A DNA stretch of 64,000 bases. Origin: Cyanophyceae cyanobacterium (GTDB lineage Bacteria > Cyanobacteriota > Cyanobacteriia > Cyanobacteriales > JBHJGN01). Of the stretch, positions 324-10,268 are shown piece after piece. The translations under genes were made by a program, and so were the position numbers. The stretch spans positions 46,515-110,514 of the forward strand of contig JBHJGN010000016.1 in the NCBI GenBank assembly GCA_050331735.1. The letters run 5' to 3'. Below the pieces are notes generated by a model, which had not been told where the DNA came from, did not search any database, and saw nothing but the letters and a program-made list of their open reading frames with translations. Numbering within the stretch: the first letter of the stretch is position 1; each line of letters opens with the position of its first letter.

Positions 324-3300
324 GTGGCGACTATTTTTACAGAAAGCTTTGAAACAGATGGCAACGGCAGCCGTTACACCACATCAATCCCGGAATTTAC
401 CGACGGTAGTAGCGATTTCTTGACTCGCACCGACGGTAGCAACATCAGCGGTGGCTATGATGTCACTGGTTCAGACGGCAGCTTTTACTTTGCCGCCCAG
501 GATATTGACGGTGAAGGGGATGCCTCACAACAAACCCTGATATTCTCTGAGATTGACATCGCCAATTTTACCAACCTCAGCTTTAGTGCCCTGTTTGCTG
601 AAGATGATTCTAGTGACGGCAATGAAGACTGGGATGCCCCCGATTTTGTAACCGTTGAGTATCAAGTTGACGGTGGCGGATTCCTCGACTTGCTAGCCTT
701 TGAGAATGACGGCAGTACCTTCAACAGCGCTCCTCTTCAAGACACGGATTTTGATGGCACTGGTGACGGCACCGAGGTTACAGATACCTTTGCGACCTTC
801 TCAAACACCATTGATGCAACAGGTTCCACACTAGACCTCCGCATTACCTTTGACCTTGACTCCGGTGACGAGGATATTGCCATCGACAACATCCAGCTCA
901 TGGGCGACGCTGCTACTTCAGAACTATTAATCAGCGAATTTCAGCCAAATCCCCCCGGCACCGATCCCTCTTCTCAAACATTTGAACTGAGCGGAACACC
1001 GGGTGAGTCTTTCAGTGGCGTGATTGTCGGTATTGAGAGCGATTCTGGAAGTGCCAACCCAGGAGATATCAATAACTTCGAGTCAGTTTCAGGAACCTTT
1101 GATGCCAATGGTTTGTTGACTGTCAGCATTGATGACTTAGAAAACCCCTCGTTTACCGTTGCTTTGCTCTCCGATTTCACCGGGGATACCTCCACGGATA
1201 TCGACCCTGACGACGATGGAATGGCGGATGACCTCTCCACCTTCGGGACCGTTTTTGATGCGATCGGTGTACTGGACGCAATGAGCGATCAGTCATTATT
1301 GTACGGAGCACAGCTTGGCGGAACGGACTTTGACTTCACAGGGTCTGAACCCGAAATTATCTTTCGAGACGCGAGTGTAGGAGCCCTATTTGCGGTTAAC
1401 GAGCTCGGTGTTAATGAAGTTTTTGATACCGCCGGGAACAGCGTAGACCCAAACTCTTTTGACATCAACCCTACTACCGGGACAACCTTTGGAGCAATTA
1501 ACCCCAGTTCCGATAATGGTGGGACAACGCTATCGATTCAGGCTAGCGATGCGGTTCAAGCTGAAGGAGACAGCGGTACGACTAGTTTCACCTTTACGGT
1601 AACTCGCTCCGGCGATACTAGCGGAGCAACCGACGTTGATTTTGCCGTTTCCGGTGAAGCTGATGCGGCAGACTTTGGCGGCACACTTCCCTCCGGTACG
1701 ATTAGCTTCGCGGCTGGCGACACCACTCAAACAATCACCCTTGCCGTATCGGGGGATACAGATACAGAAGCAGACGAAGACTTCACTGTTACCCTCTCCA
1801 ACCCGACTAACGGAGCCACAATTGCGACTGCTACCGCTACAGGCACAATCCAGAACGACGATATTACCGTCACCCCGATCTTTGAAATTCAAGGAGCTGC
1901 TCAAAGCTCACCGCTCGCAGGACAATCTGTTTCCACAATAGGGATTGTGACAGCAGTGGATACCAACGGATTTTACCTGCAAGATCCGACTGGAGACGGT
2001 GACAGTGCTACCTCTGACGCTCTGTTTGTCTTTACTAGCTCTGCTCCTGGCGTAAGCGTCGGCGACGAACTTCAGGTGAGCGGTACGGTTAGCGAGTTTA
2101 TTCCTGGCGGTGCGGGGACAGGCAACCTATCGATTACTCAAATCAGCGGCAGTCCCACGATTACCACCTTATCTACTGGTAATGCGCTACCGAACTCGGT
2201 GGTTTTAGGGGTCGATCGCACTCCTCCCACAGAAATTATTGATAACGATCAAGACACTCAGTACAACGTTCTGCAAGGCGGCGGCGACTACGAACCGACC
2301 GCAGACGGCATCGACTTCTACGAAAGCCTAGAAGCGATGAGAGTGACGGTTAACGAGCCAGTTGCCGTTGCTGGAACCTCTCAATTTGGTGAAATCTTTA
2401 CGGTGGTGAATGATGGTGCTGGCGCCAGCAATTTGAGTCAGCGCGGCACAGCAAATATTGCTCCTGAAGACTACAACCCAGAGCGAGTTCAGATTGACAG
2501 TGACTCGTTTACTCCAGGCGGAATTCCGGATGTCGCGACCGGGGCTGAGCTTAACAACGTCACCGGCGTAATCAGCTACAGCTTTGGCAGCTTTGAGGTG
2601 CTGGCGACAGAAGCCATTACTGTTACTGAATCAAACCTAGAGCCAGAGATCAGCACCATTGCACCAACGGCTACGAACCTTACCATTGCCACCTACAACG
2701 TCCTCAACCTCGACCCGAACGATAACGATGGCGATATGGATGTGGCCAACGGACGCTTTGAGGCGATCGCTAACGACATTGTTACTAACCTGAATACGCC
2801 GGACGTCATTGGTTTACAGGAAGTTCAAGATAACGATGGTTCCGACAACACCGGCGTTACTTCTGCCAGCGAAACATTACAGCTATTGGTTGACGAAATT
2901 GCCGCTGCTGGTGGTCCCCAGTACGAATTTATCGACAATACCTTTATCGAAGATGGCGAGAGTGGCGGTCAGCCGGGCGGTAACATCCGCACTGCCTTTT
3001 TGTATAATCCGAATCGTGTCAATCTCGTTGATGGTTCGGTTCGTCCGATCGGCGATCAAGAGCCAGGTAGCCCCTTTAATGGGTCACGTTTACCTTTAGT
3101 GGCCGATTTTGAGTTCAACGGTCAAACAGTAACCGTTGTTGACAACCATTTTTCCTCCAAAGGTGGCAGCAGCCCGCTCTTTGGGGCGATTCAGCCTGCT
3201 AGCGATCTTCAAGAAGATCCAGACATTAACGGGAGCCTAGATGAACGTCGGGAGCAGGCGCAGGCGGTGAATGATTTCGTCGATGGAATTTTAGCTAACG

Positions 3301-4726: not shown

Positions 4727-7702
4727 TCACTGAGCATCCATCCAGTTTTGCCCGACGCGCACATCCACAACCAAAGGTACGCTTAGCTCTACCGCATTCT
4801 CCATTGTAGAAACAATCTGAGGCTGCAACCCTTCCCACTCATCGGGGGGAACTTCAAACACCAGTTCATCGTGAACCTGAAGCAACAACTGGGCCTGATA
4901 GTTTTGTAAAATGGAGTGTAGCTTGACCATCGCAATTTTAATAATATCAGCGCTAGAGCCTTGGATTGGGGCGTTAGCGGCGGCTCTAAGCAACTGGGCA
5001 TCGCCGTAGTTCATCTTGATTTGGCTCAGGTTGAGCGCATCCGGGTTGCAGCCGCGCAGCTTCATTAAATTTTTGCTGGCAAAGTTGAAGTAGCGCCGCC
5101 GTCCTAAAATGGTGGTAACGTATCCATGAGCGATCGCCTCTCGCTTCATCTTCTCTAAATACGCAAATACCTCAGCATAGCGGCTGCGGTACTTTTCAAT
5201 AAACGCTTTACCTTCTTTCGCGCTCACTCCCGCTTCTCTAGCGAATCGCTGCGCTCCCATGCCGTAGATCACGCCGAAGTTAATAATCTTGCCAAGGCGG
5301 CGTTCTTGAGAAGTTACGGACTCTTTATCAAAAATTAGCTTCGCCGTCACGCCATGCACGTCACTTCCAGTACGATAGGCTTCTAGCAGCACTGGCTGCT
5401 GAGTGAGGTGAGCCAAAATTCTCAACTCAATTTGGGAATAATCCACCGCAACCAATTGCCATCCTGGCTTAGGAATAAATGCCTGACGGATTTTGCGCGA
5501 GAACTCAGTCCGAATCGGAATGTTTTGCAGATTGGGATCAGAAGAAGAAAGTCGTCCGGTGGTGGTAACGCTTTGATTAAAGTTGGTATGTACTCTCCCC
5601 GTATCTGAACGAACCAGCGCTGGTAAAGCATCAACGTAGGTAGACTTGAGCTTAGACAGCGTACGATGCTCCAGCACCGTGCTGACGATGGCGTGGTCAT
5701 GCTGGAGCTTTTCTAAAGTCGCGTGATCGGTTGAATATCCTGTTTTTGTCTTTCGCGACTTACTGCGATCGAGTCCAAGTTTTTCAAACAAAATCTCGCC
5801 AAGCTGTTTCGGAGAACCGAGATTAAATTCCTCGCCTGCATACTGATAAGCCTGAGCTTCCAGCCTTTGCAAATCCTGTTCTAGCTGCTGAGACAGTCTG
5901 TGCAGATACTCTGTATCAATGCATACCCCGCGATCTTCCATCGCCGCTAAAACTGGTTCTAGTGGTTGCTCAACCTCCAACAGCAGCTTGCGGAGTTCCG
6001 GTTGTTTCAGTTCAGCGTTGAGGACTGAAACGAGGCAAAAAGTAACATACGCATCTAAGCCACAGTAGTCAGCTACTTTCTGAATTTCTAAATCGGCAAT
6101 GGTTTTTCCTTTGGGAATTTTTAGCTCTTTATAACTCAGAGATCTGATTCCCGATAAATATTCCTCGGCTAAATCCTCTAGTTTATGACTCTGTTCGGGA
6201 CGCAGCACGTAGCTAGCCAGCATTGTATCAAACACAACTCCGGCTAGCCTAATTCCCTGATGCCACAAAATCACCCGGTCGAATTTAGCATTTTGAAAGG
6301 CTTTTGGGTAGTTTTCATCTTCTAGTATCGGACGCAGCGCTGATAGAACCTGCTCCTTGGCAAGCTGGTGTCCTTGAGTATGTGCGGTGGGAATATACGC
6401 TACATCAGTTGCCCCCCAACAGCAGCCAATGCCAACTAATTCAGCATCTCGCGGATTTAACGACGTTGTTTCTGTATCCCAAGCAACGGGATGATTTTTG
6501 TCGGTATGAGTTTTAAGAAGCTCAACTAATTCTGTGAGTTGCTCTGAAGTGTCAATAATTTTTGGAGCAACGGACGATGAGTAAACGACGGTTTGTTCGG
6601 CTGACTCCGGCTGTTCAGAACTTGAATCAGATCCCGCTGCAAATAATGCCAACTGTCCATCTGGATTAGATGTCGCTGAAGGAAGTGGTTCTTTCCCTGA
6701 AATATTAGCACTATCTTCTACGGGGGCAGATGTACCGCCAAATTTTTCCTGTAGCCGGTCAATTCTCTTGAGGAATGTTTTGAGCTCTAGCTCTTCTAAA
6801 ATAGGTTTTAATGCTTCACTGTCAAATCCTTGAAGCTTGCACTCTTCTAAAACAACATCTACGGGAGTATCTAAGTGAATCTGTGCTAGGTACTGGGAGT
6901 GCAAAGCGTCTGCTTTGCCCGTTTCTAGCTTTTTCTGAACGGCTCCGCCAATGTTATCTAAGTTTTGATAGATTGTTGCTAGATCGCCGTATTCTTGCAG
7001 GAGTTTGACGGCGGTTTTATCTCCGATGCCGCGAACCCCGGGAATATTATCAGATTTGTCTCCACACAAGGCTTTATAGTCTACAACCTGATGAGGCTTG
7101 ATTCCAAGCTTTTCCTCAACAGCGATGGGATCCATTTCTATGTAGCCTTCGCTGGAGCGGTTTTTTAAAGCACTGTTGCTCAAGTAGAGAACTTTAATAT
7201 TATTCTGGTCAACCAGTTGAAATAAATCGCGATCGCCTGTTAAAATCTTGACTCGATACCCAGCAAGGCTTGCCTTTTGGGCTAGTGTCCCTAAAACGTC
7301 ATCGGCTTCGTATCCAGGAGCCGTAATCACTGGTAAGTTGAGAGCCGCCAGCAGCTCTTTGAGATTGTTTAAATCAGGAACAAAATCTTCTGGAGTTTCT
7401 TTTCTGTCAGCTTTATAGTTCGCATCCGCTTCATGGCGAAAGGTTGGTTCTCCACGGTCAAAGGCAACAGCGACGAACTGAGGCTGCTGGGACTCCACCA
7501 CCTGAGTCAAAGAATTAAGAAACCCAAAGCAGATGCTGGTGGGAATCCCCGTCGAAGTTTTGAGCGGACCTTTCCTCGATGTCGCAAACGCATAATAGGC
7601 CCGAAAAGCTAGAGAATGACCGTCTATCAAAACCAATAGCGGTGCTGTCTCTGACTCGGAACCGCCGGAGAAGGAAGGAGAGGAAGGAGAAAATTCAGAC
7701 AT
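4727..7702 (-). CDS. polA: DNA polymerase I
   Basis: 5'-3' exo (LIDGHSLAFRAYY, GDKSDNIPGV), 3'-5' exo (WDTETT), polymerase motifs DYSQIELR, KIINFGVIYG, QVHDEL. Confidence 0.98.
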   Translation of the reverse strand: MSEFSPSSPSFSGGSESETAPLLVLIDGHSLAFRAYYAFATSRKGPLKTSTGIPTSICFGFLNSLTQVVESQQPQFVAVAFDRGEPTFRHEADANYKADRKETPEDFVPDLNNLKELLAALNLPVITAPGYEADDVLGTLAQKASLAGYRVKILTGDRDLFQLVDQNNIKVLYLSNSALKNRSSEGYIEMDPIAVEEKLGIKPHQVVDYKALCGDKSDNIPGVRGIGDKTAVKLLQEYGDLATIYQNLDNIGGAVQKKLETGKADALHSQYLAQIHLDTPVDVVLEECKLQGFDSEALKPILEELELKTFLKRIDRLQEKFGGTSAPVEDSANISGKEPLPSATSNPDGQLALFAAGSDSSSEQPESAEQTVVYSSSVAPKIIDTSEQLTELVELLKTHTDKNHPVAWDTETTSLNPRDAELVGIGCCWGATDVAYIPTAHTQGHQLAKEQVLSALRPILEDENYPKAFQNAKFDRVILWHQGIRLAGVVFDTMLASYVLRPEQSHKLEDLAEEYLSGIRSLSYKELKIPKGKTIADLEIQKVADYCGLDAYVTFCLVSVLNAELKQPELRKLLLEVEQPLEPVLAAMEDRGVCIDTEYLHRLSQQLEQDLQRLEAQAYQYAGEEFNLGSPKQLGEILFEKLGLDRSKSRKTKTGYSTDHATLEKLQHDHAIVSTVLEHRTLSKLKSTYVDALPALVRSDTGRVHTNFNQSVTTTGRLSSSDPNLQNIPIRTEFSRKIRQAFIPKPGWQLVAVDYSQIELRILAHLTQQPVLLEAYRTGSDVHGVTAKLIFDKESVTSQERRLGKIINFGVIYGMGAQRFAREAGVSAKEGKAFIEKYRSRYAEVFAYLEKMKREAIAHGYVTTILGRRRYFNFASKNLMKLRGCNPDALNLSQIKMNYGDAQLLRAAANAPIQGSSADIIKIAMVKLHSILQNYQAQLLLQVHDELVFEVPPDEWEGLQPQIVSTMENAVELSVPLVVDVRVGQNWMDAQ

Positions 7703-7805
7703 ACATCTATTTTAGCGAGAGACTTTGGCCACCAAGGAACCCAGAAGGGTGCTGCGACCATAAACTTGTTTTGGTCGTAGGGAAATTCTGGGGCAGTAGT
7801 GAGAG

Positions 7806-8204
7806 CTAAGCACTATCTTGATTTTTGATATAGTCTTTAATTTTCTCTAAGGTAGCACCGCCGCAGGAGTTGACGGCATAACCCAGCGACCAAAGAACGG
7901 GCTTGCGATAAAACCCCGACAAATAATCGCTAAACTCCTTGCGAACCAGGCGAGAAGAAACCGTTTTAAGGTTGTTGACCAACTTGCTAGGAGCGACTTT
8001 TGGGTTAACGTCGAGCAGGACGTGCAGATGGTCAGCCTCCGTATTGAACTCCAAAACCGAGCAATCCCATTTAGAACAAGTATCGTGGAAGATTTGTTCT
8101 AGCCGTTCATGGATAGCTCGGTTAATCACTTTATAACGATATTTTGTCACTATAACTAAGTGTAGTTTCAAGCTGTAAACAGCTCCGCTCGTTGACTTGT
8201 GCAT
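7806..8204 (-). CDS. tnpA: IS200/IS605 Y1 (HUH) transposase
   Basis: HLVIVTKYR, HUH motif DHLHVL, LKTVSSR, catalytic Tyr in KDYIKNQ; ATG at 8204 gives a typical 132 aa protein. Confidence 0.93.
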   Translation of the reverse strand: MHKSTSGAVYSLKLHLVIVTKYRYKVINRAIHERLEQIFHDTCSKWDCSVLEFNTEADHLHVLLDVNPKVAPSKLVNNLKTVSSRLVRKEFSDYLSGFYRKPVLWSLGYAVNSCGGATLEKIKDYIKNQDSA

Positions 8205-8231
8205 TATTGGACTAAGTGATACAATCTGTTC

Positions 8232-9611
8232 ATGATACTCGCGCACGTCTACAAGCTCAAGCCCTCGCCCTCCCAATCGGCACTAATGCACGACTGGCTG
8301 AACATGCTGCGGGCGCACTACAACTTCTCCTTGCGAGACCGTATTGAAGCCTATGAACAGGCAAGAAGTCCTGTGCTAGGTAACTACTCTCGACTGGACA
8401 ACCAGGGGAGGACGCGACACCGGAACTTGGTTCCGGTGCGCGAGTCGTCCGTGGTGTGCTGCCCATTGACTTGCTCAGTTAACAAAACAGCAACAGTGGG
8501 CTATCCTTGGACAAAAGTGGGGAAGAGGCGCTCTGCGGGGATGCAGCAGGACGCTTACCTACCGGAGATGAAGTCAGCTAGACCTTGGTATAAGCGAATT
8601 AACTCTGACGTTCTGCAAACGAACCTGCGGCGGCTCAACGATGCCTTTAACCGTTTCTTTGACGGACTAGAAAAGTATCCCCAGTTCAAGACTCGCAGTA
8701 AGTTTCGCTCTTTTAGCTACAAGCCCAAGCAGGTCAAGATGGAAGGGAATCGAGTTTATCTGCCAGGGTTGGGCTGGATGCGCTTTTACCTATCTCGTCC
8801 TCTGCCAGAGGGGTTTGAAATTAGAACGGTAACGGTAAGGCGCAAGAGTGACGGCTGGCATATGTCGGTGCGGCTAGAGAACGAGGATGTTCCTAGCCTG
8901 ATGCCAAAAGAAACCAGCCAAATTGGTTCAGCCATAGCAGTAGACTTGGGCATTAGGAAGCTAGCGGCGTTGAGCAACGGGGAGTTGGTTGAAAATCCTA
9001 GATTTTCCAAGCGAGTCGAGCGCCGAAAACGGATTAGGCAAAAAGCCGCTGCCAGGAAGATCAAAGGGTCGAAGAATCGCGCCTCGGCGTATCGATATTT
9101 GGCGAAGCTAGACCAGAAAGTAGCTAGAGGGCGAGCCGACTATCACTGGAAGCTAGCTAACCAGTTAGCCCGTGCTGGAGATGCCATTATTTTTGAGGCA
9201 CTCAACATCCGAGGCATGATGGCAAGGTGCAAGCCGAAGCAGTGTCCAGAAACTGGGAAGTATCTTAAGAACGGGCAGGCGGCTAAGCGCGGTCTCAATC
9301 GCGTTATTGCTGATGCTGGCTGGGGAGAGCTAAAGCTAAAGACGAAAGCCGTAGCTGCGAAGCTAGGCTTGATCGTCTGCGAAGTTGACCCCAAGTTCAG
9401 CTCTCAAGAGTGTAGTGAATGCGGCTATATCTCTCCGGTTAATCGAGACAAGGAGAAGTTTCTGTGCGAGGCTTGCGGGTACTTCTGCGACGCAGATACT
9501 CAGGCTTCGCATAATTTGCTCCAAAGAGGACTAAAATCTCTGGGAATTAGTCCAGCCCAGCTACGGGGAGTCCCCTCGAAAGTTACACCTAGGAGTTCTG
9601 CTCAGCCGTGA
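8232..9611 (+). CDS. tnpB: RNA-guided endonuclease TnpB
   Basis: N-terminal HTH (YKLKPSPSQ), RuvC-I VDLGIRK, RuvC-II IIFEALNI, Zn ribbon CSECG/CEACG, RuvC-III DADTQASHNL. Confidence 0.93.
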   Translation: MILAHVYKLKPSPSQSALMHDWLNMLRAHYNFSLRDRIEAYEQARSPVLGNYSRLDNQGRTRHRNLVPVRESSVVCCPLTCSVNKTATVGYPWTKVGKRRSAGMQQDAYLPEMKSARPWYKRINSDVLQTNLRRLNDAFNRFFDGLEKYPQFKTRSKFRSFSYKPKQVKMEGNRVYLPGLGWMRFYLSRPLPEGFEIRTVTVRRKSDGWHMSVRLENEDVPSLMPKETSQIGSAIAVDLGIRKLAALSNGELVENPRFSKRVERRKRIRQKAAARKIKGSKNRASAYRYLAKLDQKVARGRADYHWKLANQLARAGDAIIFEALNIRGMMARCKPKQCPETGKYLKNGQAAKRGLNRVIADAGWGELKLKTKAVAAKLGLIVCEVDPKFSSQECSECGYISPVNRDKEKFLCEACGYFCDADTQASHNLLQRGLKSLGISPAQLRGVPSKVTPRSSAQP

Positions 9612-9827
9612 AATGCGGTCGCCCATCTGAATGCGGGACGCTGCATTCCGCAGTTCCCGCATGAGGAGCGACAGAAAACATCATCGGGGTTGCTCGATGA
9701 GCCTAGGAACCCTCGGCAGCTCAGTCTGTTCGAGTGGAGGAATGGTCAAGTAATTGGCTGTTCAGATTCTGCGACTGTAGCTTTAGCTCAATCGTAGAGT
9801 ATGTCAAAAGGACAAATGAGACAACCG
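9560..9827 (+). ncRNA. putative TnpB omega/reRNA (scaffold to 9807, guide from flanking 9808 to about 9827)
   Basis: Lies between the tnpB 3' end and the right end, as for known TnpB reRNAs; several stem-loops (9607-9618, 9631-9662, 9769-9797); 5' boundary is a guess. Confidence 0.55.
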
Positions 9828-10268
9828 CCCCATCTGTTCAGAGACTTTGTTGAGCTTATTCGCCAACCTTTACTGTCTTTTAATAAGTGTAAAGTCCTGT
9901 AAATATCAGGAGCCATGTTTTAAAGAAGGCCTTATCTTAATAAATAAGCACAGAGGCAAGCAAAGCTTAAAGGAAACAGAGATTAGAACTTGTGCTTCCC
10001 GTTCTCAATCTCACCGGCAACTCCTAGAGCTAGCGTCAATTTTAGATAGTTCTGCTTCTAATCTGCTAAGAGATTAATGCTAACAGATTAGTCAAAGTAG
10101 CCGCTATAAGTATCGCCTGAATCGGTGTTGTGATGCTAGCGAATTAAGAAGCTCTGTTGGTACGTCCACTCTAGTAATAACATTCTTCCTGTTTAGTTAG
10201 GAGTCCAAATCGCTTTTACGTCTTGTACACCCGATCGCCCGCCCTCCCTTGAAGGCGGGCAAATTGTT

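Follow-up and report, generated by a model that had tools for sequence, protein, structure and literature searches.

The question raised by this locus is where a small transposable element that lies directly upstream of a polA-like gene begins and ends, which sequence it lands in, and whether its TnpB protein could be guided by the flanking DNA back to the site that the element has left. The element is found in a window of 64,000 nucleotides from a cyanobacterium of the class Cyanophyceae (assembly GCA_050331735.1, contig JBHJGN010000016.1, positions 46,515 to 110,514 of the forward strand), and the positions given here are those of the window unless a contig or locus is named. An earlier sequence-only reading of the window had proposed IS605-type ends, a CCAC target that doubles as the target-adjacent motif (TAM) of TnpB, and a guide aimed at the empty site upstream of polA.

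A single complete element of the IS605 group, in the IS200/IS605 family, occupies positions 7733-9807. It is 2,075 bp long, and its two genes diverge, tnpA being encoded by the minus strand and tnpB by the plus strand. It is a previously undescribed member, and nothing known about the IS200/IS605 family is changed by it. The ends, the target and the start of the guide are supported as they were first read, and by analogy with characterised systems TnpB would take CCAC as its TAM and the right flank as its guide. It is highly probable that the boundaries, the landing site, the guide geometry and a mechanism like that of IS608, ISDra2 and the ISGst elements form one account of this stretch.

Ends of the element and the CCAC target

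The ends consist of the following features.

7729..7732, plus strand: CCAC, the TnpA target tetranucleotide retained in the left flank and the predicted TAM of TnpB (14 of 14 left ends, frame restoration)
7733..7805, plus strand: left end (LE), with a 15-nt linker, the left guide (GL), the left imperfect palindrome (IPL) and a spacer to the tnpA stop
9765..9807, plus strand: core of the right end, with the right guide (GR) GATT at 9765-9768, the right palindrome (IPR) at 9769-9797 and 10 nt ending in TCAA at 9804-9807

The trait of the IS605 group is present, namely subterminal imperfect palindromes on one strand without terminal inverted repeats. The left palindrome forms a hairpin at 7752-7780 with a 9-bp stem (CTGCGACCA/TGGTCGTAG), and its 5' foot is abutted by the guide GGTG at 7748-7751, which is +16 to +19 from the proposed cut. 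The DNA fold of the left 62-nt stretch has a z-score of -2.2. The right hairpin (stem CTGCGA.../...TCGTAG) has GATT directly 5' of its foot, and the 10 nt AGTATGTCAA beyond it terminate in TCAA. Both plus-strand hairpins have the common foot CTGCGA/TCGTAG and are conserved by compensatory changes in relatives. The four motifs CCAC, GGTG, GATT and TCAA each stand where the sequence-only reading had placed them, correct to the base.

Guides of the IS608 type are matched to the cleavage sites by three base pairs, and the third of these, between guide base +19 (position 4) and target base -1, was reportedly described by Barabas in 2008. The other two join guide base +16 to target base -3 and guide base +17 to target base -4, as given in an excerpt of PMC5934647. 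By this rule the guide GGTG calls for a site of the form CCnC and the guide GATT for one of the form TCnA, and CCAC and TCAA fit these forms at -4, -3 and -1. Three specified bases at fixed positions would match by chance with a probability of about 1/64 for each end and 1/4096 for both ends by simple arithmetic. GATT is replaced by GAAT in two relatives that still end in TCAA, so the change is confined to the unpaired third base of the guide. The spacing is 19 nt from the cut to the foot of the left hairpin and 10 nt from the foot of the right hairpin to the cut, and the same 19 and 10 nt are printed for IS608 in the excerpted text of PMC3201880.

Other copies of the element agree with these borders. 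Copies in the same genome were found by blastn, and all matches lie at contig edges. Contigs C90 and C5 each end in a further match to the left end (7728/7729 to 7868) with 95% identity, and contigs C45 and C70 each start with a match to the right end (9671 to 9807/9808) with 85% identity. All three left ends in the genome are preceded by CCAC (ggCCAC, tgCCAC and caCCAC), and beyond TCAA, where each of the three right ends stops, the sequences diverge. A scan of metagenome contigs with TnpB gave 50 loci, where full-length TnpB identity reaches 78%; similarity to the left end was found in 11 of them and similarity to the right end in 33. Every one of the 11 left ends reads nnCCAC followed by CA and the element, with all kinds of dinucleotide before CCAC, and the left hairpin with GGTG is conserved in 10 metagenome relatives. 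The right-end similarity comes near the end of the element in 23 loci, and 21 of these have the TCAA end (18 aligned to the last base and three by eye). In this count L064 is without flank and L065 and L075 have only one or two bases of it, while L076 and L077, which carry an extra insertion, and 10 more distant loci are left out.

Altogether, CCAC is found before 14 of 14 related left ends (three in the same genome and 11 in metagenomes) and TCAA at 24 of 24 resolved right ends. Copies with other boundaries or without a preceding CCAC had been named at the outset as evidence that would speak against the reading, and none is seen among these ends. The sequence beyond TCAA is unrelated between copies, and the similarity of the window to all other copies ceases at 9807. 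There is no target-site duplication, as the right flanks do not repeat CCAC.

In the contigs of the one public run with the locus (X1, probably the source sample) the read depth rises from about 50 in the flanking DNA to 140-210 within the element, which means that several copies exist. A second, diverged version of the element has a depth of about 90 in the same run. At least three copies lie at different sites in the genome, which on these data has the window copy and about two sibling copies whose interior is unassembled. The family has inserted several times at different CCAC sites. One sibling copy (G000 C5:50209-50349 with C70:1-141) interrupts a TonB-like gene, 12 residues before the TonB_C domain. 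The relative L063, with a TnpB that is 76% identical, is inserted in another, unrelated tnpB between the parts that encode RuvC and TNB (L063:1-704 and 2663-3040).

The position of the left cut was read from host genes. The flanks were joined in silico with 0-8 bases of the shared stretch kept, and the longest open frame that spans the junction was scored. Eight metagenome loci have both ends, of which two are without a usable right flank and two are intergenic; the remaining four (L063, L069, L082 and L085) are informative, and all four are best with 1 mod 3 bases kept, i.e. 4 nt. The joint in L063 gives 234+126 codons, compared with 51 and 23 in the other phases. Its host gene is another tnpB, with OrfB_IS605 to the left of the element and the TNB domain to the right, and with exactly CCAC kept the joint aligns without gaps to a TnpB homologue on contig C74. 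In the same genome, the pair C5+C70 gives 258+180 codons only in the phase of 4 kept bases, and the TonB_C domain (E 3e-8) begins 12 residues past the joint. Keeping 3, 5 or 6 bases breaks the frame in every informative joint. A cut directly after CCAC, as originally proposed, is what restores the frame in the only insertions that lie in genes, and judged from sequence it is as well supported as possible short of a real empty site. The TnpB homologue on C74 (C74:290-1002) is itself split between two frames near 553-559 and is probably a frameshifted pseudogene.

Relatives from the same order in the GTDB taxonomy, with TnpB identities of 45-62%, have left ends without similarity to the window and are mostly tnpB-only elements with other ends. 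Guide and target covary as expected in one of these distant genomes (G200: AATA with TTAT, GAAT with TCAA), and the two to three copies in each of two others (G001 and G010) do not place the borders. The distant tnpB-only relatives L048-L061 (G200 and G117) have IS608-like right ends with the guide GAAT and the TCAA end. At least three left ends among them follow TTAT with the guide AATA, in line with the pairing rule.

Transposase, TnpB and predicted guide RNA

The two genes and the predicted RNA are located as follows.

7806..8204, minus strand: tnpA, a Y1 (HUH) transposase of 132 amino acids with its ATG at 8204 (Pfam, alignment to IS608 TnpA)
8232..9611, plus strand: tnpB, 459 amino acids (Pfam, alignment to ISDra2 TnpB, alignment of 35 sequences, AlphaFold2 model)
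9528..9807, plus strand: predicted omega-RNA scaffold, also called right-end RNA (reRNA), with stems in the 3' end of tnpB, a variable linker and a core at 9671-9807 (RNAalifold, alignment)
9808..9827, plus strand: right flank, the predicted 16-20-nt guide of the omega-RNA (guide role by analogy with ISDra2)

TnpA matches the Pfam family Y1_Tnp (PF01797) with an E-value of 4.4e-40 and aligns to IS608 TnpA (2a6m/2vju, E 6.5e-23), with the HUH motif (DHLHVL) and the C-terminal tyrosine (DYIKNQ) in the aligned columns. The protein looks intact, with its catalytic motifs in place. TnpB matches HTH_OrfB_IS605, OrfB_IS605 and the Cas12f1-like TNB domain (PF12323, PF01385 and PF07282), all above the cut-offs, and aligns to ISDra2 TnpB (8bf8/8exa) with an E-value of 6e-26. 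Its RuvC triad is D238/E322/D422 and its zinc finger C394/C397/C412/C415. The triad of ISDra2 TnpB is D191/E278/D361 according to an excerpt of PMC10097598, and the residues in the window occupy these columns. The alignment of 35 sequences shows no variation at E322, D422 and the four cysteines and a conservation of at least 90% at D238, so the RuvC D-E-D triad that had been called intact at first sight is confirmed on both counts. The AlphaFold2 model, which was built on the same alignment, has a mean predicted local distance difference test (pLDDT) value of 82.6, and its only long stretches of low confidence are residues 51-86 (pLDDT <50) and the last 13.

The last 212 nt of the element were aligned for 16 relatives and a consensus structure was obtained by RNAalifold. 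It has 60 base pairs, 19 of them with compensatory changes, and consists of two stems within the 3' end of tnpB, three stems up to the right-end hairpin and the hairpin itself. In the window the conserved 137-nt core (9671-9807) is intact. A covarying structure that extends over the 3' end of tnpB and the right end is consistent with an omega-RNA scaffold as in ISDra2. No match was found in Rfam at E<=1 over 7600-10000.

The 16-mer of the predicted guide occurs once in the genome, and no self-target is therefore expected besides the donor joint. The right flank (9808-9902) begins with AAGGACAAATG, in which a Shine-Dalgarno-like AAGGA and three further nucleotides precede an ATG (9816) that opens a 28-codon open reading frame (ORF), so that the predicted guide overlaps a translation start. 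The first 12 nt of the guide occur six times in the genome (five besides the window), at gene starts of the form AAGGA-N3-ATG and never after CCAC.

In the proposed mechanism TnpA would bind both plus-strand hairpins, the guides would align CCAC and TCAA in the active sites, and the plus (top) strand would be excised as a circle. The donor would be resealed by joining the left flank that ends in CCAC to the right flank that starts at 9808. An RNA from the 3' end of tnpB through the right end would carry about 16-20 nt of flank (9808-9827) as guide, TnpB would cut the resealed site beside CCAC as TAM, and recombination with a sister copy would restore the element. A similar arrangement is described in the excerpted text of Meers et al. 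(10.1101/2023.03.14.532601) for ISGst1-5 of Geobacillus stearothermophilus, where TnpA and TnpB have one TAM in common, the nuclease is directed at the donor joint, and the TAM and the transposon-encoded motif (TEM) pair with DNA guides. By this analogy, CCAC is likely to be the TAM of the element's family or its core.

A 991-codon ORF, identified as polA in the sequence-only reading, runs leftward from 7702. The element starts 30 bp upstream of its start codon, 3' of CCAC, and the native upstream region of polA is thus displaced. As tnpA is oriented toward polA, read-through from tnpA may now feed this gene. The distance from the end of tnpA to the polA start is 104 bp, and a scan for promoters and terminators that included 7702-7806 gave no signal above shuffles.

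The flanks contain a 10-bp direct repeat, AGAGACTTTG, at 7718-7727 and 9840-9849, i.e. 5 bp and 32 bp from the ends of the element. It was considered as a target-site duplication and rejected, because it is not adjacent to the element ends. Such a repeat arises in 425 of 200,000 shuffles of the 60-nt flanks, and it is not a dispersed repeat of the genome (19 copies versus about 11 expected). Elhai is said to have published on small dispersed repeats in cyanobacteria in 2008; a literature search on this subject gave nothing usable.

Hairpin insertions and the separated C-terminal tail

The window copy differs from its siblings by two hairpin insertions, and the second of these separates a tail from TnpB.

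8409..8455, plus strand: first private hairpin insertion, 47 nt compared with 2 in the sibling, a net gain of 45 nt in frame (sibling contig)
9605..9670, plus strand: second private hairpin insertion, 66 nt (borders +/-2), the source of the tnpB stop codon TGA at 9609-9611 (9604-9671 is missing from the sibling contig)
9672..9797, plus strand: C-terminal tail separated from TnpB but still in its frame; QLSLF is at 9717-9731 (translation)

The first insertion replaces one glutamate by the 16 residues RTRHRNLVPVRESSVV (amino acids 60-75) and adds 15 residues to the recognition (REC) region. It was not found in any of 15 aligned relatives, and its DNA fold has a z-score of -4.9. In the alignment to ISDra2, the site falls after the column of residue 51 and before that of residue 57. 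In ISDra2 the residues Y52 and S56 contact the TAM, as stated in an excerpt of PMC10097598, and the insertion adjoins the columns of these residues, inside a clade-specific loop that is disordered in the AlphaFold2 model. The second insertion is placed in a linker of the scaffold that is unpaired in the consensus structure. It is missing from 16 of 18 relatives, and in the other two (L066 and L069) different hairpins lie close to the site, at most a few bases away. Its DNA fold has a z-score of -2.4.

The 46-nt hairpin at 8407-8452 has one other exact copy in the genome (G000 C65:553-598). This copy is in another reading frame and belongs to a different transposase ORF, where it sits in the linker that joins the DUF4277 domain to DDE_Tnp_1. 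A 41-nt hairpin in the RNA linker of L066 (L066:2206-2246) has the same outer frame, GGACGCGA...CGTCC, and a different, compensated inner stem. These three hairpins look like a family of tiny mobile palindromes that enter genes of insertion sequences without breaking the frame.

The TGA at 9609-9611 is the single in-frame stop, and the frame is then open for 62 more codons, including the tail ...DEPRNPRQLSLFEWRNG... All 12 full-length relatives have this tail as part of TnpB, each with QLxLF, and the sibling on contig C45 also reads through. QLxLF is a consensus for binding to the beta clamp. It is found at the C-terminus of TnpB in all 12 full-length close relatives (among L063-L085) and in seven of 14 distant relatives with inspected tails (among L015-L038). 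In the close relatives the Gln, Leu and Phe codons of the motif vary synonymously (CAG/CAA; CTT/TTA/CTC/CTG/CTA; TTG/CTG; TTC/TTT). The motif is encoded inside the RNA scaffold and is separated from TnpB in the window by this one TGA. A putative beta-clamp motif in cyanobacterial OrfB of the IS200/IS605 family is mentioned in an excerpt of Gomez et al. 2014 (PMC3971601), which predates the discovery of the function of TnpB. We tentatively suggest, as a rather doubtful possibility, that a selected beta-clamp-binding tail tethers TnpB to the replication fork where donor joints arise, and that the tail in the window has been uncoupled by the TGA of a mobile hairpin.

Alternative readings and comparison with known systems

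Several observations weigh against the account given here. The empty site upstream of polA was not found among the 41 relatives, which include no genome of the same genus or family; in the closest of them (G010), polA and the gene next to it are only about 71% identical to those of the window. The 24-mer of the left flank has no match in the metagenome contigs, no contig joins 7732 to 9808 in X1, which is the only run with the locus, no RNA data set was listed as containing it, and the assembly contains no 24-mer of a donor joint or a circle junction. A single C.A mismatch, which relatives lack, interrupts the right-end stem in the window; the mismatch lies between the arms CTGCGACTG and CAATCGTAG of 9769-9797, and relatives such as L068 are fully paired. 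The linker between CCAC and GGTG is 15 nt in the window and 17 nt (eight loci), 16 nt (one) or 14 nt (one) in relatives, so the 19-nt geometry is not strict. The spacing that had been described as exactly +16 to +19 is true for the window copy, but it is a trait of the window lineage and no constant of the family. Finally, CA follows CCAC at all 14 left ends, and because CCACCA is common to all of them conservation alone cannot place the cut. With CCACCA or CCA as target the element would begin elsewhere, and strict adherence to the 19-nt spacing of IS608 would shift the cut 2 nt rightward in the eight relatives with longer linkers. Such an offset is nevertheless very improbable, since the frame tests place the cut: no informative joint tolerates 3, 5 or 6 kept bases, the joint in L063 aligns gapless with 4, and the guide GGTG complements CCnC and not ACCA. 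It is also unlikely, though less so, that this family's TnpB recognises a TAM other than the TnpA target CCAC, or one that extends beyond it. In favour of such a TAM, the helix turn that contacts the TAM in ISDra2 is replaced in this TnpB clade by a segment of its own, about 35-50 residues long and with a CCPLTC motif. No paper with TnpB, CCAC and TAM as whole words was found in the literature, which is weak evidence for the CCAC motif being unreported. On the other hand, ISDra2 and five ISGst families have a TAM that is identical to the TnpA target or overlaps it, and the base at -5 is unconserved in the 14 left flanks, so that insertion imposes nothing longer than CCAC.

The two insertions belong to the same side of the balance, in that the first, within the low-confidence stretch of the REC region (pLDDT <50), and the second, with its TGA before the tail, may have disabled TnpB. 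The ends could then be read correctly in a copy that is decaying, with TnpB and the omega-RNA dead and the passenger possibly mobilised in trans by the TnpA of a sibling. We regard this as possible, if somewhat doubtful. Both insertions are private, occurring in neither sibling nor relatives; the first lies beside the columns of the TAM-contacting Y52 and S56, and the TGA of the second cuts off a tail that is kept in all 12 full-length relatives. The window copy is also 5-15% diverged from its siblings. No difference separates the two siblings at either end, and this points to them as the recently active lineage. Against decay, the insertions of 45 and 66 nt both preserve the frame, the catalytic residues of TnpA and TnpB are all present, and the loop that received the first insertion is clade-specific and left disordered by the model. 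In ISDra2 cleavage takes place without the C-terminal domain and without the 5' part of the RNA, according to the excerpt of PMC10097598, and the last 137 nt of the scaffold are untouched in the window, so the first insertion is the larger risk to activity. From its sequence, TnpB of the window copy may still be active, although the chance is slightly less than even. Given two private insertions, the earlier statement that it may be an active nuclease holds only as a hedge.

In IS608 of Helicobacter pylori tnpA and tnpB have the same direction, whereas they diverge in the window, and the left linker varies in length among the relatives of the window element. IS608 has the same Y1 TnpA, the same subterminal hairpins on one strand with 4-nt guides 5' of their feet, guides that complement the cleavage sites at -4, -3 and -1, spacings of 19 and 10 nt and the right cleavage site TCAA. 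Its target is TTAC and its guides are AAAG and GAAT, compared with CCAC, GGTG and GATT in the window. The third guide base of IS608 is an A that inserts into the protein (excerpt of PMC3201880), and it is a T at both ends of the window element. ISDra2 of Deinococcus radiodurans has a TnpB with the same D/E/D triad columns and the same CCCC zinc finger, and an RNA encoded over the 3' end of tnpB and the right end with the flank as guide, as predicted here. It differs in the TAM, which is TTGAT in ISDra2 and predicted as CCAC in the window; in addition, the window TnpB has about 50 extra residues between ISDra2 columns 51 and 57, and its relatives have QLxLF in the C-terminal tail. The TAMs of ISGst1-5 are AT-rich and experimentally tested in the text excerpted from Meers et al., unlike the window motif, which is G+C-rich and predicted. 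Cyanobacterial OrfB, as excerpted from PMC3971601, shares the C-terminal QLxLF with the relatives of the window TnpB, but in the window itself the motif is split off by the TGA. The features that distinguish the element are the G+C-rich CCAC target, the T as third guide base, the variable left linker, the clade-specific REC insertion and the C-terminal QLxLF.

For an uncharacterised cyanobacterial IS605 element, a single copy and the guide and cleavage-site rule of IS608 are enough to predict the landing site to the base, and this prediction is borne out by twenty-odd independent insertions. CCAC is thereby a G+C-rich TAM candidate for a TnpB clade, set against the AT-rich TAMs of the TnpB proteins compared here (TTGAT and the ISGst motifs, as given in the excerpted sources).

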